DNA of 64,000 bases from Pyrinomonadales bacterium. GTDB lineage: Bacteria; Acidobacteriota; Blastocatellia; Pyrinomonadales; Pyrinomonadaceae. Position numbers and translations under genes: made by a program. The notes below the pieces were generated by a model, which saw only the letters and a program-made list of their open reading frames with translations, made no database searches and had not been told where the DNA came from. The stretch covers positions 9,954 through 73,953 of the forward strand of contig JBBPXZ010000006.1 of assembly GCA_038200355.1 (NCBI GenBank), in the 5' to 3' direction. Shown piece after piece: positions 5,502-62,142 of this stretch. Every line of letters starts with the position of its first letter. The stretch's first letter is position 1.

Positions 5502-6236
5502 TTAGCTTAAAAACTTTTCCAGATAAAAAGGCAGCATCCTGCGCCACCATTCCCAATCGTGTTTTACATCGTGTCCCCAAACGTCGAGAAGGTGCGGAAT
5601 GCCTTTTTCGTCGAGAATGCCGGAAAAATCGCGGCTTCTTTCTGGCGCTTCAAACGCGCCTTGTCCGGTAACTATTACGATTGAATCGGCTTTTCGGAGA
5701 ATCGGCAGGTAATAATCGTCGTTCAGGTTTTTAACGTATTGAATCGGATTATTGAAATAAACATTGTCGTCCGTGTAATTTTTCAGATAAGAACGAATAT
5801 CGTAACTGCCGCTCATCGCAATCGTGCCGCGAAAGTTATCGGGATGCTTAAAGTAGCAGTTGGCGGCGAGAAATGCGCCCAGGCTCGCGCCCGTAGTCAG
5901 CGGACGCGCCGCCGCGCCGCATTCATCACGAATAAGCGGCAGAACTTCTTCCTGAATATAACGGTCGTAGCGCGTTTGCAGTTCGGCTTTCCATTTCGGC
6001 GACGCCTGTTCATTTAAAAGGCTGTAGCGATTAACCGAATTTACCGAATAAGCGCGAAGCCGACCGGATTCGATAAGCGGTTTTATCGCGTCGAGCAGCA
6101 GAAAACGCTCGTATTCGAGATAATCGGCGGCGGCGGTCGGAAACATCAAAAGCGGATAACCGCTCGTTCCGTAAGCAACCAGCGGCATATCCATTCCGAG
6201 ATTGTGGCTGAACCAGGAAGTCGTATCGCGTCTCAT
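5502..6236 (-). CDS. alpha/beta-fold esterase family protein
   Basis: 244 aa with a nucleophile elbow GASLG and overall resemblance to the 'putative esterase' (esterase D/enterochelin-esterase-like) fold. Confidence 0.7.
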   Translation of the reverse strand: MRRDTTSWFSHNLGMDMPLVAYGTSGYPLLMFPTAAADYLEYERFLLLDAIKPLIESGRLRAYSVNSVNRYSLLNEQASPKWKAELQTRYDRYIQEEVLPLIRDECGAAARPLTTGASLGAFLAANCYFKHPDNFRGTIAMSGSYDIRSYLKNYTDDNVYFNNPIQYVKNLNDDYYLPILRKADSIVIVTGQGAFEAPERSRDFSGILDEKGIPHLLDVWGHDVKHDWEWWRRMLPFYLEKFLS

Positions 6237-6331
6237 TCAAAAGTTTCTCCAAAGTGTTTTTAATATAATTTACTGAGGTTAAAAGAAATCGATTTCAAGT
6301 TCAAGTTAGGCTTGTCGCGTAAGTATCGAGA

Positions 6332-7324
6332 CTACTTCGCGACGGTGATTTCGCGCGTCGTCGAATTATAGCCGCCGTTATCGACGAGATTTCCGTCCTT
6401 ATCGACTAATTCGAGCTTGACGACGTGCCTGCCGTTCGTCCAGCCGGTCAGCCAAATCGGTTTCCAACTGTCGATAAATTTCGCTTCGCCGCCGTCAACC
6501 GAATAACGCACCCGATAACGCTCTCCAATATATTTCTTATCTGGAAAATCATCATTGAGCAATACGGCATTAGACAACCAGAAATCAATCATAATCGCAT
6601 CGGCGTCCGCGCCTTTGTATTCGCCTTTCGGACGGCTGTATGTGAGAAGCGGTTTCTTCGGGTCAACCGCGCCCGCCGTCGAATTTGCCATATCTTTTCC
6701 TTCGGGCGTCGCCGCTGCATTGACGTTTGCGGCGTTCGCCATCGTGTTTCCCGCGTTGGTCGTCGTCGGCTGAGCGGCGTTTGCCGCGCCGTTCCTAACC
6801 GTAAATTTCACCATCTGAAACGCGCCTTCGTTTTTGTAGCTTTCGTGCCACGGACGCGACGGGAAAAAGCGCAAAGTGTGTTCGCCGTCGGCGACGTTTC
6901 TCAATTCAAATTCGCTGTCGAGATTATAAAAGGCTTCATACGGCTGATTGTCTAAAATAACGTGAATGTGATTGCCCATTCCGGTCGCCGTATCCTTCAT
7001 CGGTTTGTAGCCTTTGAGGTCGCCGGATAATTCCAGTTTCACTTTGACGATTGAACTGTTGACGGTCGCGCCGTCTTTCGGCTCGACAACTTTAAGCGTC
7101 GGCGCTGCGCTATCCTGTTCGCCGCGCTCGTTCATCATATCGGCAATTCGCTGCGGGCGCGGCGCTTCCGTTAAATTCTGGACGGCAGGCGCGGCGTTTG
7201 CATTCGTCGCATTTGCCCCGTTTGCCGTGCTTGAAGTCGTGTTCGCCGTATTTGTCCGCGGAGATTCGCAAGCCGAAAAAGCGGCAACAGCTAAGGCGAG
7301 TATAAAAACTTTCGTCAATTTCAT
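6332..7324 (-). CDS. lipoprotein of unknown function with two Ig-like modules and Asn/Ala/Thr-rich linkers
   Basis: A lipobox LAVAAFSA|C follows MKLTKVFI, and an AAGGAGA RBS lies 9 nt before ATG 7324. The longer ORF to 7399 has no RBS. Confidence 0.7.
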   Translation of the reverse strand: MKLTKVFILALAVAAFSACESPRTNTANTTSSTANGANATNANAAPAVQNLTEAPRPQRIADMMNERGEQDSAAPTLKVVEPKDGATVNSSIVKVKLELSGDLKGYKPMKDTATGMGNHIHVILDNQPYEAFYNLDSEFELRNVADGEHTLRFFPSRPWHESYKNEGAFQMVKFTVRNGAANAAQPTTTNAGNTMANAANVNAAATPEGKDMANSTAGAVDPKKPLLTYSRPKGEYKGADADAIMIDFWLSNAVLLNDDFPDKKYIGERYRVRYSVDGGEAKFIDSWKPIWLTGWTNGRHVVKLELVDKDGNLVDNGGYNSTTREITVAK

Positions 7325-13197: not shown

Positions 13198-13264
13198 TTC
13201 AAATTAAAATTTTTCGGGTTGGAATATCGATTCAGATTTTCAATGTTCCAGCCTGAAAATCCGG

Positions 13265-13306
13265 CGAGCCGGTTCGGTTATTTTATAATCGAACCGGCTC
13301 GTTTAT
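13265..13306 (+). terminator. intrinsic-terminator-like hairpin
   Basis: CGAGCCGGTTCG-13 nt-CGAACCGGCTCG is followed by TTTAT. Confidence 0.6.
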
Positions 13307-13345
13307 CAGTTCGGGCAATCGCACAAAACAGGTTTTATCTTTTAT

Positions 13346-13447
13346 AGGACTTTCTCATTTTTGCAGAAGCCCGCACGATAGTTCGGCGCAACAGTGAAGC
13401 AACACACTTACTGACGTGCGTGTTTCCGCATTTTGAGAAAGTCCTGA
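13346..13447 (+). mobile_element. MITE-like / structured ~102-nt element, copy 1 (overlaps the 3' end of the histidine phosphatase gene)
   Basis: It has 12-bp terminal inverted repeats AGGACTTTCTCA / TGAGAAAGTCCT and inner stems TGCAGAAG/TTTCCGCA and CGCACG/CGTGCG. Outside a 16-17-nt core it is near-identical to 18041-18143. Confidence 0.75.
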
Positions 13448-13975
13448 CGTAATAACTTTTTCGTTAACCTTAGACGGCTTCCTTTTATATCTTCTGATTT
13501 CAACAACCCAGATTTTATCGTATTCGTTTTCGCCCAAGTCTTTATATTTATCGGTTTTCGTCAAAAGATTCGCCAATTCCGGCGTCGTGTTATTGTGTCC
13601 GACGACAACGATTGTCCGCGCGTTCGATTTCAACAATTCACCCGCAAATTCTTCGAGATTATCGAAATCGTAAGTCCGAATCGGAATCCGGTAACGCGCA
13701 TCGACGGTTTCAGCCAGCGGCAAAACGGTTGCTCTCGTCCGTTTATAATATGTCGAATAAATCAAATCCGGCTTGTATCTCCCGACGGTTTCAATCAACT
13801 TTTCCGCCCGCGCCTTTCCCGCTGCCGATAATTCGGGATTAGATTTATTTCTATCGGTCAAATCCTTTTCCGCATGGCGCAGTAAGATAATCGTCAATTT
13901 TCGGCTTTGAGCAAAAACGCCGCTGCCGGAGCCGATAAAACATAACCCGAATAAAAGAAAAAAGAGAATTTTCAT
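13355..13975 (-). CDS. exported histidine phosphatase superfamily (branch 1, SixA/PGAM-like) protein; last ~31 codons read from the inserted element
   Basis: It has a signal peptide (MKILFFLLFGLCFIGSGSGVFAQ), the RHG motif LLRHAEKD and VVGHNNT. The C-terminal ..ITSGLSQNAETRTSVSVLLHCCAELSCGLLQK is encoded by 13447-13355. Confidence 0.8.
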   Translation of the reverse strand: MKILFFLLFGLCFIGSGSGVFAQSRKLTIILLRHAEKDLTDRNKSNPELSAAGKARAEKLIETVGRYKPDLIYSTYYKRTRATVLPLAETVDARYRIPIRTYDFDNLEEFAGELLKSNARTIVVVGHNNTTPELANLLTKTDKYKDLGENEYDKIWVVEIRRYKRKPSKVNEKVITSGLSQNAETRTSVSVLLHCCAELSCGLLQK

Positions 13976-17190: not shown

Positions 17191-17925
17191 TTACTTATTT
17201 GAAGCGGCTTCGGCGGTTTTCGATTCGTTAAAAGCGGCGTCCTTTACGGATTGTCGTTTTTTGTTTTCGATAAGAAAGTATTTGAAATAATCATACATCG
17301 ACCAGATTGCCGTCAGAACGGCGACCCATAGTCCGGCGCGCCCGACCAGATAGCCGAAGACTTTCCAGTCGTTTGAAGCGAGCGAAAGATTTGCGAGATT
17401 AGCGAAAGCCGTCCGCACTTCGGCGACTTCCCAGAAACGAAACGTCGGCAATTCCCATCCGAAATTCGAGACCGGCGGATTTCCGTTCGCGCCGGCGATG
17501 AGCAGCGCGACAATGGCTATGCACTGCGCCCACATTTTTACCTTACCGACCTTCTGCGCAGAAATAATAATGCCTTCGGCGGCGGCGGCGGAACGCAACC
17601 CGGTTATGATAAACTCTCTGCCGATAATAATTACGACCGTCCAGGCGGGCGCGAGATGTTTTTCGACAAGGACGATAAGCGCGGCGGAAACCAGAAGTTT
17701 ATCGGCAATCGGGTCGAGCAGGGCGCCGAATCTTGAAACCTGATTGCGGCGGCGGGCGATGTGTCCGTCCAAAATGTCGGTAAAGGAAGCGGCGAGAAAA
17801 ATAGCGATGGCGAGCGCGTAGCTGCTGACACCGAACCAGTTTTCGGCAACCGGCGTCAAAAGCACGACCACCAGAAGCGGAACGATGACGATACGCGCCA
17901 ATGTCAGATAATTCGGTAAATTCAA
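17191..17925 (-). CDS. pgsA: CDP-diacylglycerol--glycerol-3-phosphate 3-phosphatidyltransferase with an extended C-terminus
   Basis: It has the CDP-alcohol phosphatidyltransferase motif DILDGHIARRRNQVSRFGALLDPIADK and multiple TM helices. Confidence 0.88.
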   Translation of the reverse strand: MNLPNYLTLARIVIVPLLVVVLLTPVAENWFGVSSYALAIAIFLAASFTDILDGHIARRRNQVSRFGALLDPIADKLLVSAALIVLVEKHLAPAWTVVIIIGREFIITGLRSAAAAEGIIISAQKVGKVKMWAQCIAIVALLIAGANGNPPVSNFGWELPTFRFWEVAEVRTAFANLANLSLASNDWKVFGYLVGRAGLWVAVLTAIWSMYDYFKYFLIENKKRQSVKDAAFNESKTAEAASNK

Positions 17926-18040
17926 TTTTTTGCAAACCGCCTTTTATTGTTTTAAGTGTAGGTTTCACCCGTAAAACCTGTCAAGAATTGAATAGTTTTT
18001 GTCAGGCGCGCTGTTCTGTCGATTAAAATTTTATAATGTT

Positions 18041-18143
18041 AGGACTTTCTCATTTTTGCAGAAGTCCGCACGATAGTTCGGCGCGATGATGATGAACAGA
18101 CACTTACTGACGTGCGTGTTTCCGCATTTTGAGAAAGTCCTGA
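18041..18143 (+). mobile_element. MITE-like / structured ~103-nt element, copy 2 (intergenic)
   Basis: It has the same termini and stems as 13346-13447. The flanks total 86 nt with 1 mismatch, and the core GATGATGATGAACAGAC contrasts with AACAGTGAAGCAACAC in copy 1. Confidence 0.75.
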
Positions 18144-18195
18144 GTGTATGTATGCGATAAAACGAGAATTGATTTTTCAACAATAGATTAACAGA

Positions 18196-18235
18196 GAAAA
18201 AGCGCAATTGACTAAAAATTCAATCGCGCTTTTTC
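18196..18235. terminator. intrinsic terminator after DUF1501 gene
   Basis: GAAAAAGCGCAATTGA-8 nt-TCAATCGCGCTTTTTC, with A/T runs on both sides. Confidence 0.75.
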
Positions 18236-18271
18236 CTGATTCAATTGTTTCCGGCGTCTCCGCAAACCGTT

Positions 18272-19750
18272 TTAAGGCTGCATAAAGCCGAGGTTACTGC
18301 TCGAAAAGTTTCCGAGGTTCGGGAAAACGAGCGGCATATCGGCTTCGGCGAGTCCATACCAGCGCGCCAGTGTCGCGGCGTATTGTTCGGCTGATGTGGT
18401 TGGAATCCAGCGCCCGCGCGCGTTTGCGCCGCTGTCGGCGTCGTCCGGTCCGTTCATCGCGAGAGTCGGAAAAGGCGTTCCGTTCGACGTGTTCGCGCCG
18501 TAGAAATCGCTGCCGGCAACCGCGCCGCCGATGACGAAAAGATGATTTGCCCACCCGTGGTCTGTGCCGACGCCCGCGCCCGAACCGGCGGGATTTAACG
18601 TGCGCGAGAAATCGGAAAGCGTAAAAGTCGTTACGTTATTGGAAACCCCCTGCGCGAGCATTTCGTCGTAAAAGGCGCGAACCGCCTGGCTGTATTGGGC
18701 GAGCAGCGTTCCCTGCCCGCTAATCTGGTTGTTGTGCGTGTCGAAACTGCCGACCTGCACATAAAAAATCTGACGGCTGACGCTCAAATCGGCGCGTTTT
18801 TTTATCAGCCTGGCAACCTGTTTTAATTGACTGCCGATGCTCGTCGTCGGAAAGGCGACGGTTACTTCCTGAAACGTCGCCAATGCCTGATTTGCCTGAA
18901 TCGCCTGGTCGGTGATATGGCTTGCCGCCTTGATGTAATCGGCGTTTAAATCCTGTGCGCGAAGTTCGTCGAAAGCCGCGAGACGGGCGCGTGAAGCGGT
19001 TGTCGTGTTAAATCCGGCGGGATTTAACACGTTGGTTAAAGATGTTCCGGCATTAGCGATTGCCAGCGGCAAAGTCGTCTGTCCGGCGGTAAAAAGCTGC
19101 GCGCCGTTTATCGACGTAATCATCGGAATCAGCCCGCCCGGATTATCGGAAAGCGTGCGCCGGTCGGAGATTCTGCCGCCCCAGCCGGTGAACGAAGGCG
19201 TGTCCGAACGTCCTGACTGATACTGCGCAACCTGGTCGGAATGCGAGAAAAGCTGAAACGGTTTGCGAATCGAATTGTTTTGATACTGCGCTCTGGTCAT
19301 CGGCGCGACGAGCGTTCCCGTGTTGGCGACGATTGCCATTTTGCCCTGCGCCCAAAGTTCGTGGATGCCGTTGTTCGTTCCGCCGGTTACAGCGCCGAAA
19401 TTCGGGTTCAGACCGTAAGTTAAATTGTTCATTCGCGGAACGGAAATCGGCAAAAGGGAATTTTGCGTGATTGCCAAGCCCTGCGAAGCGCGCGCGTTTG
19501 CGTAAGCTGTGTAGTTGCTGACGTTCACGTCCGCGTGATTCGGAATAACGGTATTGTTGCCGTCGTTTCCGCCCTGCATAAAAATACAAACCAGAGCGCG
19601 GTAATCGCCGGACGCATCGGGCGCGCTCGCGTCTTCGACTTTCTGCGCCATCGCGCTCATTAAACCGAAATGTTCAAACTGCGTGGCGAGCGCCGCCATT
19701 CCAAGCGCGCAAGTCGATTTGGTTAAAAATTCACGTCTCGATGTTGTCAT
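18272..19750 (-). CDS. Tat-exported DUF1501 family protein (sulfatase/alkaline-phosphatase-like fold)
   Basis: It has the twin-arginine signal MTTSRREFLTKS, typical DUF1501 blocks (CIFMQGGNDGNN, SFDTHNNQ, GTDHGW) and an AAGGAG RBS. Confidence 0.85.
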   Translation of the reverse strand: MTTSRREFLTKSTCALGMAALATQFEHFGLMSAMAQKVEDASAPDASGDYRALVCIFMQGGNDGNNTVIPNHADVNVSNYTAYANARASQGLAITQNSLLPISVPRMNNLTYGLNPNFGAVTGGTNNGIHELWAQGKMAIVANTGTLVAPMTRAQYQNNSIRKPFQLFSHSDQVAQYQSGRSDTPSFTGWGGRISDRRTLSDNPGGLIPMITSINGAQLFTAGQTTLPLAIANAGTSLTNVLNPAGFNTTTASRARLAAFDELRAQDLNADYIKAASHITDQAIQANQALATFQEVTVAFPTTSIGSQLKQVARLIKKRADLSVSRQIFYVQVGSFDTHNNQISGQGTLLAQYSQAVRAFYDEMLAQGVSNNVTTFTLSDFSRTLNPAGSGAGVGTDHGWANHLFVIGGAVAGSDFYGANTSNGTPFPTLAMNGPDDADSGANARGRWIPTTSAEQYAATLARWYGLAEADMPLVFPNLGNFSSSNLGFMQP

Positions 19751-19760
19751 ATCTCTCCTT

Positions 19761-19863
19761 AAGAGTTCTCAGAGTTCGTAGAGTTTGTAGAGTAAAGGAA
19801 TTCTTTCGACTCTACGAACTCTACGAACTTCACGAACTCCATAAACTCTATAAACTCTTAGAA
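19761..19863. repeat. 9-nt-periodic word hairpin inside the DUF1800-DUF1501 operon
   Basis: The left arm is AAGAGTTCT CAGAGTTCG TAGAGTTTG TAGAGTAAA. The right arm is ACTCTACGA x2, ACTTCACGA, ACTCCATAA, ACTCTATAA, ACTCTTAGA. It belongs to the same word family as 788-880. Confidence 0.8.
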
Positions 19864-22035
19864 CTATCTTTGCACTTGATACTGCGAAGAACTCGCCGTC
19901 AGATAAATTGCCGTCTTCGCGCGCGTTAAAGGGTCGGTTGCCGGAGTTGCCAGAACCGCCGTCAGAATCGTGTTTTTCATCTGCGCGGACATTGTGCCGT
20001 GCATCATTTTCGCGTTTAAGAAATCGAGCAGCTGATTGCCGGAAGCGTCGAGCGACGAGAGCGCCTGCGTTTCCGTAAAATCAATCGAAGTGCCGAACGG
20101 CGCGTTGGTCGAATTGCCGTTGACGCGGCTGAAGACGAACGTGTTTATAAAATTGGCGCGGGCGATTGCCGTTCCGGTTGTCATAATGCCGAATTCGGGA
20201 CCGTTTAACGCCGTTCCGGGAACTGTGTAATCGGGCGAATAATAATTGAAAACCGTCGGCGAGTTAAACGCGTTTTGTCCCATCGTCGCGACCTGCGGAT
20301 TGACGTAGCCGTCGCTGTCCGCCGCGCCGTCGGCTGAACGCACGTTGAATTGACGGAAAAGATTCGTCGCCAATTGAACCGGCTCGCGGAGCTTGCCGTA
20401 ATTCGGGTCGGTTTTAACGCTGCCGCGCGCTTCCGGGTCGAGCAGAATCGCCCGGACGACGGCTTTCAAATCGCCGCGCGCGTTTGAACCGTTGTTGTTG
20501 AAAACCGCGGCGACGCGTCCGACAAACGCGGGCGTCGGGTCGCTCGCAACCATCTGCTGAATCAAATAGCGGCTGACGAACGGCGCGACGTTCGGATGAT
20601 TGAAAATATTGTCGAGCGCCTGATTCATCTCGGTCGCGCCGCTTGTGTTCGCCGCGATTGTCGGGTTGACGGCGTTCGGATACGCGAGCAGAGTTTTAGC
20701 CGTAACGTCGTGATTGTTTTGGTTCAAAATCATCGGGTCTTTGTAATTCGGCGCGCCCAAAGTCGAATTCGGGCAGCCGGTGTTGCACAAAGTCCAGCCG
20801 GTAAAAACCTTCGTAAAATTATTAACCGTCGTCTGGTCGTAAGTCGGAATTGGGCTGCCGTTTTGGTCGCGCTGCAAAGTTCCATCTTGATTGAGCATAA
20901 AAAGTCCGACCGAAAAAAGCTGCAAAATCTCGCGCGCGTAGTTTTCGTTCGGGTTGTTTTTCGTGCTGCGAACCATATCGAGATAATTGCCCATCGCCGG
21001 ATTGAGCGTGATGTCAGTCATCAAGTTGCGGTAATTGCCGAACGCGTTCTGCGACAATTTCCGGTGATAGGCAACCATATAACTCGACTGCTGCGTATCG
21101 ACGCCGGAGACGACCCACAATTGGCTCAGCGCCCACGCGACGCGGTGTTTTAACTGCGCGTCGCCGTAAAACGCTTCCTTGTAAAACCAGTTCTGCATTC
21201 CATACATCGTGTAATGGTCGCGCTGGCAGTTGACGGGAATATTGTTTTGACAATCGGTGGAAACGTTCGACGGCATCAGCGGCAGATTCGGGTAAGGATA
21301 AGTCGGATACGCGGCTTCAAATTGTTCGTCGAGCCAGCCGCGCAAACCAGAGCGCCGGATTTTCAATTCCAGTTTCCGACTCGGACCGAAAGTCGCCTGT
21401 TCCATAAATCGAACGCGGTCGCCCGCGTGCGTATACTCTGCAAAATTCCGCTCCGGCGCGTTTGCGGCTTTTTTGGCGTCTGTGTTTGCCGAAGCCGCGA
21501 GCATCGTCTCGGCGTCGTCTTTGATATTTCCGCCGATTTTGCCGATTCCCAGTCTTAAACGTTTGCTCGTCATTCCGCGCCAGGCGACACTGACCAAAAC
21601 GTCGCCGTCGAAAATCGTGTTTTCCCAGAATCCGGTTTCGTCGGTCAACCGGACAATCAGCGCGTAGACGCCCGTTTGATTTTGCAGCGGTTCGATTTTC
21701 AGAACCGGAAAGCGATACCGCCTGCCCGTTTCGTCTTCGGCGGAGACACGAAAAGCGCTTGCGTCTTCACCGGGCATCAGCGAAACGCCGGTTACGAAAA
21801 GCAAAATTTTTGAACCGGCGGGAAACGCGCGATTTCTGATTTTTGTCAGCCTGACGCGTTCCGGGTTATTTGCCGAAACAGCCAGAGCGCGGGTCGGATT
21901 CGGCTGGCTTAATAAAACCGGCGACGGTGAGTCGGTGTCTGAATCATCCTGCGCCGAAACCGAAAACGCGAGCAGAAAAAACACGAATCCGATGCTTAAA
22001 ATGTGCCGTAAGAAGCGCTCTCTCTGGCTTTTCAT
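19864..22035 (-). CDS. DUF1800 family protein with signal peptide and extra ~190-aa N-terminal Ig-like region
   Basis: 723 aa with the C-terminal ~500 aa colinear with DUF1800. It is followed by DUF1501, which is the canonical pairing. Confidence 0.8.
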   Translation of the reverse strand: MKSQRERFLRHILSIGFVFFLLAFSVSAQDDSDTDSPSPVLLSQPNPTRALAVSANNPERVRLTKIRNRAFPAGSKILLFVTGVSLMPGEDASAFRVSAEDETGRRYRFPVLKIEPLQNQTGVYALIVRLTDETGFWENTIFDGDVLVSVAWRGMTSKRLRLGIGKIGGNIKDDAETMLAASANTDAKKAANAPERNFAEYTHAGDRVRFMEQATFGPSRKLELKIRRSGLRGWLDEQFEAAYPTYPYPNLPLMPSNVSTDCQNNIPVNCQRDHYTMYGMQNWFYKEAFYGDAQLKHRVAWALSQLWVVSGVDTQQSSYMVAYHRKLSQNAFGNYRNLMTDITLNPAMGNYLDMVRSTKNNPNENYAREILQLFSVGLFMLNQDGTLQRDQNGSPIPTYDQTTVNNFTKVFTGWTLCNTGCPNSTLGAPNYKDPMILNQNNHDVTAKTLLAYPNAVNPTIAANTSGATEMNQALDNIFNHPNVAPFVSRYLIQQMVASDPTPAFVGRVAAVFNNNGSNARGDLKAVVRAILLDPEARGSVKTDPNYGKLREPVQLATNLFRQFNVRSADGAADSDGYVNPQVATMGQNAFNSPTVFNYYSPDYTVPGTALNGPEFGIMTTGTAIARANFINTFVFSRVNGNSTNAPFGTSIDFTETQALSSLDASGNQLLDFLNAKMMHGTMSAQMKNTILTAVLATPATDPLTRAKTAIYLTASSSQYQVQR

Positions 22036-59580: not shown

Positions 59581-62142
59581 ATGAATTTCAACAAAAAAAT
59601 TAACCGTCTGGTAAAAACAACCTCTTTTGTATTGCTTTTTTCGCTTGTTTTTACAAACGTGTTTGTTTATCGCGTCTTTGCCGAAACGAAAACAGCGTCT
59701 TTGGTAAAACTTACCACATTAAACAAATTTGCGACGGATTTGACCGAACTGGCGCGCGGCGGCGGCATCAGGCAGACCGCGAATTTCGACCGCGAAGTCG
59801 GCAGCCTCGTTAAACATCTTTCCGGCGGCGGCATCGCGCAGCCGGTTGTTTTAGATGAAACGGGCGAAAATCAGCAGCTGGTTGTCGAACAGCTCGCGCT
59901 TCGCCTCGCGTCGGGCGACGTTCCGGCTTCGTTAAAAGGAAAGCGCCTGCTCGAACTCGAACTCGATTCGGTCTATTCGCAGGACGCCGAACAATCGGCG
60001 CGAACGATTGAAAAAATCTTCGACGAGCTTGCCGCCTCGCGCGGCGACGTGATTTTATTTGTCGATGAGCTGACGAACTTCGTCGGCGGCGCGCGCGTTA
60101 ATAATCCTTTGACCAATCTGCTTCTTCAGGGGAAACTGCAAATCATCGGCGGCAGCTCGCAAGCCGCTTATAAAGAAAAAATCGAAGACAACGACAATAT
60201 TTCCGCTTTGTTCCGCACGATTCTAATCGGCGACGGCGCGAATAACCCGGTTGAAAACAATCGCCGCGCCGCTTTAAATAAAGGTTTTCAGGGCGATAAC
60301 GTTTCCGCCGATTTGCGCGAAATGATGGCGCGGAACGCGGCGGGCGACAAACGCACCGACGTTATCGTTCAGGCGAAAGATGCAAGCAATCCGGCGTTTC
60401 GTTCGCTGCTGGCGGAAAACGAAGCTCGGTTGAGCGAACGAATCGGCGCGAGCGACACGATGGTTGTCAACCTTTCGTTAAAAGCCGTCGAAGTTCTAGC
60501 CAAGAGCGGCGCGGTTAATTTTATGTCGCCCGACCGCGAAACGAAAGGTTTCGGGCATCTCGAAAAAACGACCGGCACGGAAATTATGCGCCAGCAGCCG
60601 GCGACACTGACGCGTCCGGCTTATAATCTGGACGGTTCGGGCGTCGGCATCGCCGTTATGGATTCGGGAATGCTGGTCAATCATAAAACCTTTAACAACA
60701 GCGCCGGCAGAAGCCGCGTCGTTTTCAGCAAAAGTTTTGTCGATACCGATTCAGACCCGGACGACGATTACGGACACGGAACGCACGTCGCCGGTATCGC
60801 CGCCGGAAGCCTCAATAAAAACAGCAACGCTTATCGCGGAATCGCGCCGAACGCCAACATCGTCAACTTAAAGGTTTTAGACAAAGAAGGGCGCGGCAAA
60901 GCGTCGTGGCTGTTGAACGGCTTGGAATGGATTAAGCAAAATCATAAAACCCACAACATCCGCGTCGTCAATTTAAGTCTCGGCGGACCGTCAGTCGATA
61001 CATACACCAACGACCCGGTTTGCCGCAAAGTGCAGGAATTGACCGCGCTCGGAATTCTCGTGGTCGCCGCCGCCGGAAACGAAGGCAAAGACGCCGGCGG
61101 TCAGAAACTTTACGGAAAAATTCACTCGCCCGGCAACGACCCGTCGGTTTTAACCGTCGGCGCGACCAACTCGAAAGACACCGATTCGCGCAGCGACGAT
61201 TTGATGGCGACCTTCAGCTCGCGCGGTCCGACGCGCTCGTTTTACACCGACGATAAAGGCAGAAAAATTTACGACCACGCCATCAAACCGGATTTAGTCG
61301 CGCCGGGCAACAAAATCGTTTCGGCGAAAGCGAAGGGAAGCGCTTATATGGTTACGCATTACCCGAATCTGTCGGACGCGTCGCTCGACTCGACCAGCGA
61401 CGACAGCCTGCTTTATATGAGCGGAACTTCGATGTCCACGCCGGTTGTGGCGGGCGCGGCGGCTCTGCTTTTCCAGCAAAATCCGAATCTGACGCCCGCG
61501 ATGGTCAAAATGATTTTTGAATACACGGCGCAGCCCCTGAGCGGCTACAATATGTTCGAGCAGGGCGCGGGACAGCTTAATATGGAAGGCGCGATTCGGC
61601 TGGCGAAATCCTATAATCCGCTTGTCGATTTCAGAACGCTCGGAGTTTCGGGAATGTCGCTTCTCGCCGTCGGAAACAGCTTTCCGGCTGCTCAAACCAC
61701 TATGAACGGCAATACATTCAGCTGGGCGCAGGGAATTTTGACAAATCACGCGTATCTGAGAGGTCAAACGATTGCCGACACTTTCCACAACGTTTATAAA
61801 AATAATTCGTGGTTTGAAGAAGGCGTTACGACCAGCAACGCGCACAAATTCACGCTGAACGATAATTTTGCAAATCCGGCAAATATCGGTCTGACAGCCA
61901 GAGTCGCCGTCAGCAACGGCTCGACAATCGGCGAAGGCTCGGTTTTCTGCGCCTTCGGAGTTTTAATAAGCGACGGAGTTTTAGTGAGCGACGGCGTTTT
62001 AATAAGTGACGGTGTTCTGGTGAGCGACGGAGTTTTAGTAAGCGACGGCGTTCTGATTAGCGACGGCGTTCTGATTAGCGACGGCGTTCTGATTAGCGAC
62101 AGCGCGCTGGCTGCCGACAACGCGATTTACGGTGATGAGTAA
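59581..62142 (+). CDS. secreted S8 subtilase with N-terminal degenerate Clp D1 AAA+-like module, I9 propeptide and C-terminal GVLxSD repeat tail
   Basis: A GGAGAG RBS precedes the ATG, followed by a signal peptide ..YRVFA|E. Residues 47-219 are colinear with ClpB D1 but the P-loop is lost. The S8 triad contexts are AVMDSG, HGTHVAG and GTSMSTP. Confidence 0.85.
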   Translation: MNFNKKINRLVKTTSFVLLFSLVFTNVFVYRVFAETKTASLVKLTTLNKFATDLTELARGGGIRQTANFDREVGSLVKHLSGGGIAQPVVLDETGENQQLVVEQLALRLASGDVPASLKGKRLLELELDSVYSQDAEQSARTIEKIFDELAASRGDVILFVDELTNFVGGARVNNPLTNLLLQGKLQIIGGSSQAAYKEKIEDNDNISALFRTILIGDGANNPVENNRRAALNKGFQGDNVSADLREMMARNAAGDKRTDVIVQAKDASNPAFRSLLAENEARLSERIGASDTMVVNLSLKAVEVLAKSGAVNFMSPDRETKGFGHLEKTTGTEIMRQQPATLTRPAYNLDGSGVGIAVMDSGMLVNHKTFNNSAGRSRVVFSKSFVDTDSDPDDDYGHGTHVAGIAAGSLNKNSNAYRGIAPNANIVNLKVLDKEGRGKASWLLNGLEWIKQNHKTHNIRVVNLSLGGPSVDTYTNDPVCRKVQELTALGILVVAAAGNEGKDAGGQKLYGKIHSPGNDPSVLTVGATNSKDTDSRSDDLMATFSSRGPTRSFYTDDKGRKIYDHAIKPDLVAPGNKIVSAKAKGSAYMVTHYPNLSDASLDSTSDDSLLYMSGTSMSTPVVAGAAALLFQQNPNLTPAMVKMIFEYTAQPLSGYNMFEQGAGQLNMEGAIRLAKSYNPLVDFRTLGVSGMSLLAVGNSFPAAQTTMNGNTFSWAQGILTNHAYLRGQTIADTFHNVYKNNSWFEEGVTTSNAHKFTLNDNFANPANIGLTARVAVSNGSTIGEGSVFCAFGVLISDGVLVSDGVLISDGVLVSDGVLVSDGVLISDGVLISDGVLISDSALAADNAIYGDE
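61957..62118 (+). repeat. in-frame 18-nt tandem repeat x8 (+1 degenerate) encoding GVL(I/V)SD
   Basis: The units are GGAGTTTTAATAAGCGAC and variants. The last three units (62047-62100) are nucleotide-identical GGCGTTCTGATTAGCGAC. Confidence 0.95.

Follow-up and report, generated by a model that had tools for sequence, protein, structure and literature searches.

Bacterial MITEs such as Correia/NEMIS of Neisseria are non-coding elements of ∼100-150 nt that carry terminal inverted repeats, are flanked by target duplications and occur as dispersed intergenic copies. They form hairpins, fall into subfamilies separated by internal indels and are able to alter neighbouring genes. IS110 bridge RNA, IS1111 seekRNA and IS200/605 omega RNA are encoded beside a recombinase or nuclease, and their variable segments match target and donor DNA. 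Among bacterial MITEs, MITEAba12 of Acinetobacter has been described (PMC6382973), and a 5-bp repeat is characteristic of ISAba11 (PMC7885321).

The stretch of DNA analysed here, 64,000 nt from a Pyrinomonadales bacterium and referred to as the window, carries two copies of a repeat of ∼100 nt. A sequence-only reading had compared this repeat to a structured RNA whose loop would be programmable and serve as guide or seed, or else to a cassette exchanged by recombination. In size, inverted repeats, duplications and hairpin the repeat is similar to Correia/NEMIS and MITEAba12, but its termini, the length of its duplication (TA in Correia) and its presumed transposase family are different. Unlike in other bacterial MITEs, variation is focused on an apical spacer of 5-16 nt, and the inner arms are mosaic. 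With the IS110, IS1111 and IS200/605 RNAs the repeat shares a conserved structured scaffold combined with a variable segment, whereas it has no adjacent cognate gene, no complementarity within the window and target duplications of the classical DDE type.

We hold with good confidence that both window repeats represent a MITE whose ends are of the IS701/ISAba11 type, and that the core is a poorly constrained apical spacer, prone to indels and exchange, and not a guide. On this reading, a well-defined MITE family tied to the widespread ISAba11 branch of IS701 is added to the Pyrinomonadaceae (Acidobacteriota). For annotation purposes the repeats would be mobile DNA, not sRNA, and repeats of this kind are able to break assemblies.

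Two copies with a common scaffold

Alignment of copy 1 (13346-13447) with copy 2 (18041-18143) bore out the block comparison made from the letters alone. The first 24 nt (13346-13369 and 18041-18064) are identical, the following 20 nt contain a single mismatch (C13370 against T18065) and the final 42 nt (13406-13447 and 18102-18143) are again identical, with 1 of 86 scaffold positions mismatched overall. Between these blocks lies a differing central segment, AACAGTGAAGCAACAC in copy 1 (13390-13405, 16 nt) and GATGATGATGAACAGAC in copy 2 (18085-18101, 17 nt). With one difference in 86 nt, the two copies descend from a very recent common ancestor. A third copy is absent from the 64-kb window, and shuffled sequence gave 0 matches to the flanks. 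The boundaries of the element (TAGGAC...GTCCTG) sit 1 base further to the left than those aligned above, and the features of both copies are as follows.

13345-13446, plus strand: copy 1 of the probable MITE, 102 nt, from TAGGACTTTCTCA to TGAGAAAGTCCTG, aligned family member
13345-13357, plus strand: left terminal inverted repeat of copy 1, TAGGACTTTCTCA, 11/13 against the ISAba11-group IS701 end TAGGACTTACGCA
13390-13405, plus strand: variable core of copy 1, consisting of AACAG, TGAAGCAAC (proposed 9-nt insertion, 13395-13403) and AC
13434-13446, plus strand: right terminal inverted repeat of copy 1, TGAGAAAGTCCTG, with TG and not TA as its final dinucleotide
18035-18039, no strand: left half, AATGT, of the probable target-site duplication of copy 2, 4/5 against AGTGT
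18040-18142, plus strand: copy 2 of the probable MITE, 103 nt
18040-18052, plus strand: left terminal inverted repeat of copy 2
18085-18101, plus strand: variable core of copy 2, consisting of GATGATGATG (proposed 10-nt insertion or triplet slippage, 18085-18094), AACAG and AC
18130-18142, plus strand: right terminal inverted repeat of copy 2, with TG end
18143-18147, no strand: right half, AGTGT, of the probable target-site duplication of copy 2, 4/5 against AATGT

Copy 1 has no recognisable target duplication (TTTTA against ACGTA), and the orthologous empty site gave no reconstruction of one. Both window copies have TG at the right end; family copies L026 and L081 carry the same TA..TG variant together with perfect target duplications.

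A long hairpin is predicted on both strands of both copies, with z-scores of -4.7 to -7.5 relative to shuffled sequences, the minus-strand hairpin being slightly more stable than its plus-strand counterpart. The long stem proposed in the sequence-only reading is thus upheld for the conserved parts, which do form a hairpin, but not for the inner part, which is poorly paired in the window copies: when the 3' arm is reverse-complemented to ACGTCAGTAAGT and compared with the 5' arm ACGATAGTTCGG, the score is just 2/12.

Family members, ends and candidate transposase

Genomes, one per species, were scanned with the pattern GGACTTTCTCA-N(65-95)-TGAGAAAGTCC, yielding 33 loci. At least 17 copies reside in a single Pyrinomonadaceae MAG, TH_ant_mag_244, and the remaining loci include further Pyrinomonadaceae or Acidobacteria MAGs. 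MAGs of Trueperaceae, Cytophagales, Saccharibacteria and Patescibacteria were also retrieved, in which the same termini enclose wholly unrelated interiors. The single match in a Gemmataceae MAG (L003), which is without TA termini or a matching duplication, may be due to chance. A second scan, of metagenomes and with the family left end as the pattern, contributed ∼25 further copies. Overall, 32 distinct family sequences were obtained. The window-type inner scaffold (GATAGTTCGGCGC...ACTTACTGAC) gave no match when metagenomes were scanned for it, and hence no sister copies of the window subtype.

Nearly all scan copies are bounded by TA...TA, which defines a 13-bp terminal inverted repeat, TAGGACTTTCTCA; ends of the form TAGGACTTTCTCA / TGAGAAAGTCCT(A/G) are present in both window copies and in every two-ended family copy. 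Flanking DNA is directly repeated over 5 bp just outside the copies, without a mismatch for 19 of the 33 in the genome-scan loci. Among the two-ended family copies the duplication is perfect in 23 of 32 and matches at 4 of 5 positions in 6 more, and A/T accounts for 87% of the duplicated target sequence. One MAG has seven insertions that occupy different sites but share 100% identity, even in the core. The elements measure ∼88-102 nt, and the sole ORF overlapping one is the read-through of the host phosphatase gene described below.

It is because of the 13-bp terminal inverted repeats, the 5-bp target duplications, the many dispersed copies and the empty orthologous site of copy 1 that we identify the element as a MITE. 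A palindrome maintained by the host, comparable to REP or BIME sequences, or a site resembling the attC of integrons, would likewise be palindromic, mostly intergenic and present in multiple copies, without being mobilized by a transposase. However, neither REP nor attC makes the perfect 5-bp target duplications that surround most copies, and the termini match IS701/ISAba11 ends. Inspection of both window copies moreover found ends without RYYYAAC/GTTRRRY core sites; no cassette array is present, and the neighbours are housekeeping genes. On the grounds of ends, target duplications and genomic context we rejected attC, REP and CRISPR-like readings, and we regard a host-maintained palindrome as scarcely credible. 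No prior description of the element was found in a literature search limited in reach, and the terminal sequence, used as a query, returned eukaryotic primer matches only.

A candidate family for the mobilizing transposase emerged from locus L002, where a MITE copy has, at a distance of 150 bp, an IS701-family element of 1,049 bp (5916-6964) bounded by TAGGACTTACGCAGTTG. The transposase gene of this element matches NCBIfam NF049921 (IS701 family). This gene is degenerate, with one in-frame stop and two frameshifts; the inverted repeats (TAGGACTTACGCAGTTG) are 17 bp long, and no matching 5-bp duplication is visible in the flanks of the element. A reconstruction of the frameshifted transposase served as query in the search for a partner. 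Plasmid matches (PLSDB) are transposases of the ISMesi2, ISPna6 and ISAba11 families, and several of these plasmid relatives have readable ends of the form TAGGA(C/G)TTACGCA. Duplications of 5 bp were read as CATAT, AATTA, ATTTA and ATGCT (ISAba11, Chondrinema, Nostoc and Gloeocapsa elements). In the protein database there are hundreds of intact 332-aa relatives, 75-81% identical, several of which are labelled Pyrinomonadaceae. Ends of the form TAGGA(C/G)TTACGCAGTTGA were present at all six Pyrinomonadaceae 332-aa transposase loci checked, and comparison of the flanks at two of these loci gave duplications of 5 bp (L051) and 6 bp (L052). Relatives on viral contigs comprise three with TAGGACTTACGCA ends and 5-bp duplications, one with a related GAGTTACGCAGTTGA end and one without readable ends.

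Of the 13 positions of the MITE end, 11 agree with the ISAba11-group ends, among them the outermost 8. The differences, at positions 9 and 11, amount to TCT against ACG; every IS701 relative with readable TAGGA-type ends has ACG where the MITE has TCT. Elements of the ISAba11 group (ISAba11, ISMesi2, ISPna6 and the 332-aa Pyrinomonadaceae elements) thus share with the MITE the terminal TAGGACTT.C.CA and a 5-bp duplication, as well as AT-rich targets, as judged from the MITE copies and the few IS duplications examined. They are also abundant in the bacterial family of the MITE hosts, the Pyrinomonadaceae, and in L002 one lies on the same contig as a MITE copy. On the other hand, the window element is only ∼100 nt long and encodes no transposase, and its arms are complementary over ∼40 nt, compared with 13-18 bp in ISAba11-group IS. 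The conserved ∼30 nt per arm, together with the motif ACACACTTAC, likewise exceed the 13-18-bp repeats of the related IS, an observation we count against the MITE reading.

An autonomous element with exact TAGGACTTTCTCA ends was found neither by tblastn over the collected loci nor among PLSDB plasmids, the protein database and its contigs, viral contigs or the matches of the metagenome family pattern, and tblastn detected no IS701 transposase relative within the window. As no element with exactly the MITE's ends was recovered from these sources, we infer the partner from the related ends, and it would be a transposase of the IS701/ISAba11 type. Metagenome matches with a left end only were rejected as partner candidates: L057 and L073 are remnants, L060 is a copy with a nested insertion, and L062, L076 and L084 are chance matches within coding sequence.

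The 13-bp end itself is not confined to this family. MITE-like elements of 87-115 nt with identical 11-13-bp termini ((T/C)AGGACTTTCTCA) and mostly perfect 5-bp duplications have interiors that are related neither among themselves nor to the window family. They were found in Trueperaceae and an uncultured MAG (L009, L017, L020, L022), Cytophagales (L007, L025, L031), Saccharibacteria/Patescibacteria (L027, L028) and other Pyrinomonadaceae (L005, L012, L015, L016, L019, L006). The presence of the same end with unrelated interiors in at least four other bacterial lineages suggests that a widespread, undescribed transposase lineage may recognize this end variant. Neither the MITE family nor the shared 13-bp end changes the current understanding of mobile elements.

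Several individual loci have features of their own. In the Patescibacteria MAG of L028, a second MITE of ∼105 nt (1955-2060) lies 90 bp from a MITE of TTTCTCA type. Its ends are the canonical ones of IS701/ISAba11 (TAGGACTTACGCA...TGCGTAAGTCCTA), and the pentamers on its two sides are TGGTT and TGGAT. The core of the copy in L060 (755-∼925) is split by a nested palindromic insertion of ∼85 nt (…CTAGAGCAATTAACGAATCAGTGTAAGACAGACTAACAGTCTGCCTTACA…GAGCTGCTCTAG…), which resembles a second small inverted-repeat element at the hairpin tip. L010 (6384-6497) is a family copy with a 14-nt internal duplication of the right end (GTGAGAAAGAAAAAGTGAGAAAGTCC). The solo left-end remnants in L057 (7455-7500) and L073 (1609-1660) are preceded by AAAGTCCG, which is similar to a right terminus, and have common downstream sequence; they represent either a decayed or rearranged copy or two abutting ends.

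Diversity of the core and inner arms

Mean entropy, calculated over the 32 distinct copies, is 0.12 bits per column in the outer left arm, 0.93 in the inner 5' arm, 1.61 in the core, 0.46 in the ACACACTTAC motif, 1.02 in the inner 3' arm and 0.16 in the outer right arm, values that include an ascertainment effect, as the search patterns fixed the first ∼24 columns in the metagenome copies and the terminal 11 nt in the genome copies. Conservation is nevertheless seen in the right arm and in the CCCGCAC segment, which the search patterns left free. Variation in the additional copies is thus concentrated in the centre and not evenly spread, which agrees with the earlier argument that ordinary neutral decay does not explain the window pair. 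The pattern is one of graded loss of constraint towards the hairpin tip, combined with exchange between copies, rather than that of a uniquely targeted loop.

Across the family, the core is purine-rich, is flanked by conserved GGCG and ACACAC and ranges in length from ∼5 nt (CAAAG, CAAAT) to 16 nt. Unrelated cores of 13-15 nt sit in an identical scaffold in L055, L056, L061, L069, L075 and L078, and simple indels do not account for these. Cores and arms have also been combined in different ways: one core occurs on different arms (L054 and L055; L072 and L079), and the same arms carry different cores (L055, L056, L061, L069 and L075). In TH_ant_mag_244, related cores are found on different arms, the opposite of the window pattern. 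Moreover, arm variants switch sides, forming the 5' arm in some copies and the complementary 3' arm in others. On the 5' side, variant Y occurs in the window copies and L079, variant Z in L064 and variant W in L074; on the 3' side, variant Y occurs in L054, L058, L065, L066, L074 and L077, variant Z in the window copies, and variant W in L070, L080 and L085. The inner arms are mismatched chimeras in ∼17 of the 32 distinct copies, both window copies among them.

The two window cores, described earlier as completely different, have sequence in common. Both contain AACAG, and an identical AACAGAC remains once core 1 is stripped of TGAAGCAAC and core 2 of GATGATGATG, one block each. A shared remainder of at least 7 nt was obtained in 0.6% of composition-preserving shuffles (P = 0.006), or in 4% when the terminal AC was kept fixed (P = 0.04). 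The reduced context, GGCGC-AACAG-ACAC, is 1 base longer than the short core of the family, GGCG-CAAAG-ACAC. Additionally, each core contains an internal direct repeat, GCAACA twice in core 1 (P = 0.02, shuffles) and (GAT)n in core 2 (P < 0.003, shuffles). The simple indel that the sequence-only reading had named as a competing explanation for the core difference is largely borne out by this two-indel alignment. Slippage was rejected as the cause of core diversity in the family as a whole, significant internal direct repeats being present in only 5 of the 32 distinct cores, and is claimed for the window copies alone.

Because of the shared AACAGAC remainder and the internal direct repeats in both cores, we favour two independent loop insertions. 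A short-core ancestor, followed in each window copy by a loop insertion or slippage event of its own of ∼10 nt, appears somewhat likelier than not as the history of the pair. The main alternative, in which at least one window copy took over its core from a family member with another core through recombination or short-patch gene conversion, is less probable but a serious contender. Such a replacement might have arisen if an ectopic copy served as the repair template for an excision gap or for a break at the hairpin tip. The mosaic central segments, the occurrence of arm variants Y, Z and W on both sides, and the same core with different arms as well as the same arms with different cores all speak for replacement. 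A donor copy carrying either window core was, however, not found in any of the collections scanned, the window-type inner scaffold is absent from the metagenome scan, and the two-indel alignment, which needs no donor, does better than chance. The earlier suggestion of a cassette exchanged by recombination therefore keeps its viability, in that the central segments of the family are mosaic.

Returning to the two loop insertions, the history of the window copies may be outlined as follows. The element is built of two long near-complementary arms, ending in the 13-bp TAGGACTTTCTCA, and a short central spacer. Judging by terminal sequence and by the length of the duplication, these ends would be bound by a DDE transposase supplied in trans and belonging to the IS701 family, ISAba11 group, and insertion into AT-rich DNA would yield a 5-bp target duplication. 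The outer ∼30 nt of each arm alone are conserved and are presumably required for mobility; the spacer and the adjoining inner arms would be free of that constraint, hence the variable centre. Located at the tip of a DNA hairpin, the spacer may frequently undergo replication slippage, small duplications and exchange between copies. The ancestor of the window copies would have had the short core GGCGC-AACAG-ACAC, resembling family members of the CAAAG type. An insertion of (GAT)3G 5' of AACAG would then have given rise to copy 2, and one of TGAAGCAAC 3' of it to copy 1. Given an unconstrained spacer at the tip and independent loop insertions, the core would be a by-product of the architecture of the element and not a guide. 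The family thus offers the picture of a palindromic MITE whose ends stay fixed while the hairpin tip and inner arms diversify and recombine.

Several observations bear directly on the proposal that the element acts, originally or by co-option, as a structured small RNA in which the apical loop is a programmable seed or guide and the copies are aimed at different targets. The hairpin is stable on both strands, the purine-rich core between GGCG and ACACAC is the most variable segment throughout the family, and conservation extends further than the inverted repeats of the related IS do, all of which would suit such an RNA. However, RNAalifold applied to 26 distinct full-length copies found compensatory change at 0 of 21 consensus pairs (covariation term -0.02); the consensus retains the invariant outer helices only, the inner helix, which is disrupted in about half of the copies, being absent from it. 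Rfam returned two tRNAs only for the whole window at gathering thresholds. Around both copies at E ≤ 10 it gave nothing credible over the element, just chance microRNA and snoRNA matches on neighbouring hairpins, so the suggested Rfam search, Acido motifs included, came back without a family match. With respect to the nearest long ORFs the copies are oriented at random (9/7/6/6 over four arrangements, in a rough ORF-based gene model), and neither copy contains a promoter-like or terminator-like site.

The search for complements proposed in the sequence-only reading gave no complement of either core within the 64-kb window at up to 3 mismatches, the longest exact matches, of 8-9 nt, being at chance level. 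No recombinase, nuclease or effector gene adjoins either copy. Furthermore, since seven independent insertions in one genome carry an identical core, the core is inherited and not set anew in each copy, and its length varies from ∼5 to 16 nt. Together with the MITE hallmarks, these results led us to abandon the programmable guide or seed loop, which we judge highly improbable. A related idea, namely that the apical spacer is a cassette position actively exchanged at the hairpin tip, or that the purine-rich loops of transcribed hairpins are diversified regulatory seeds, seems to us very unlikely too; if either were true, the MITE scaffold would serve to spread short sequence modules and to shuffle them.

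Insertion sites and nearby repeats

The MITE copies in the window lie among the following genes; the copies' neighbours comprise a histidine phosphatase, an arginyl-transferase, DUF1501 and PgsA.

13355-13975, minus strand: histidine phosphatase gene (SixA-like; Pfam His_Phos_1), its last 30 codons and stop codon derived from copy 1
17191-17925, minus strand: PgsA-like gene (CDP-alcohol phosphatidyltransferase), with copy 2 located 115 nt upstream of its start
18272-19750, minus strand: DUF1501 gene, upstream of copy 2, with a hairpin (18195-18236) in between

Copy 2 is intergenic, between the DUF1501 gene and the PgsA-like gene. Its distance of 115 nt from the start of the PgsA-like ORF agrees with the ∼115 nt given earlier for pgsA. 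A match to a sigma-70-like promoter (17984->17955) lies between copy 2 and the PgsA-like gene.

Copy 1 overlaps the end of the phosphatase gene. Homologues of this phosphatase are, among the best 120 listed, nearly all 170-185 aa long (177-178 aa for the closest listed), and they align just to the first ∼176 residues of the window protein. The orthologues have 175-178 aa and end in ...VITY*, compared with 206 aa for the window protein. Orthologous genes that are 85-88% identical lack the element and stop exactly at the start of copy 1. In DNA alignments with the two closest orthologous loci, homology extends through ...GTTATTAC, after which the element follows in the window and a stop codon in the orthologues. 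Because the homology with the orthologues breaks at this point, copy 1 is taken to have inserted at the stop codon of the phosphatase, adding 30 codons and a new stop; its landing there produced the 30-residue tail. The insertion (13355-13446, minus strand) replaced the terminal Tyr codon and the stop codon of the SixA-like phosphatase, and the 30 residues gained are SGLSQNAETRTSVSVLLHCCAELSCGLLQK. The extended ORF terminates at a TGA within the inverted repeat of the element. One copy has thus rewritten the C-terminus of a host gene.

GC-rich strong hairpins lie near both copies, at 13263-13309 by copy 1 and at 18195-18236 by copy 2, each with A/T-rich tracts on both sides in the manner of bidirectional terminators. 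These two hairpins are the source of the spurious microRNA-type Rfam matches, and of the two only that at 13263-13309 was called by the terminator scan.

Elsewhere in the window, two tandem arrays of 9-nt units (∼9-10 units each, with CTCCAAAAA, CTCTACGAA and CTCTATAAA as variants) are located 19 kb apart, at 816-898 and 19801-19883. The latter, ∼50 nt upstream of the DUF1501 start, overlaps the 3' end of an ORF of 723 aa (19864-22035, minus strand). A further array, at 61938-62117, consists of ∼10 tandem copies of an 18-nt unit (CGACGGAGTTTTAGTGAG-like), which, if coding, would probably specify a repeat of 6 residues.
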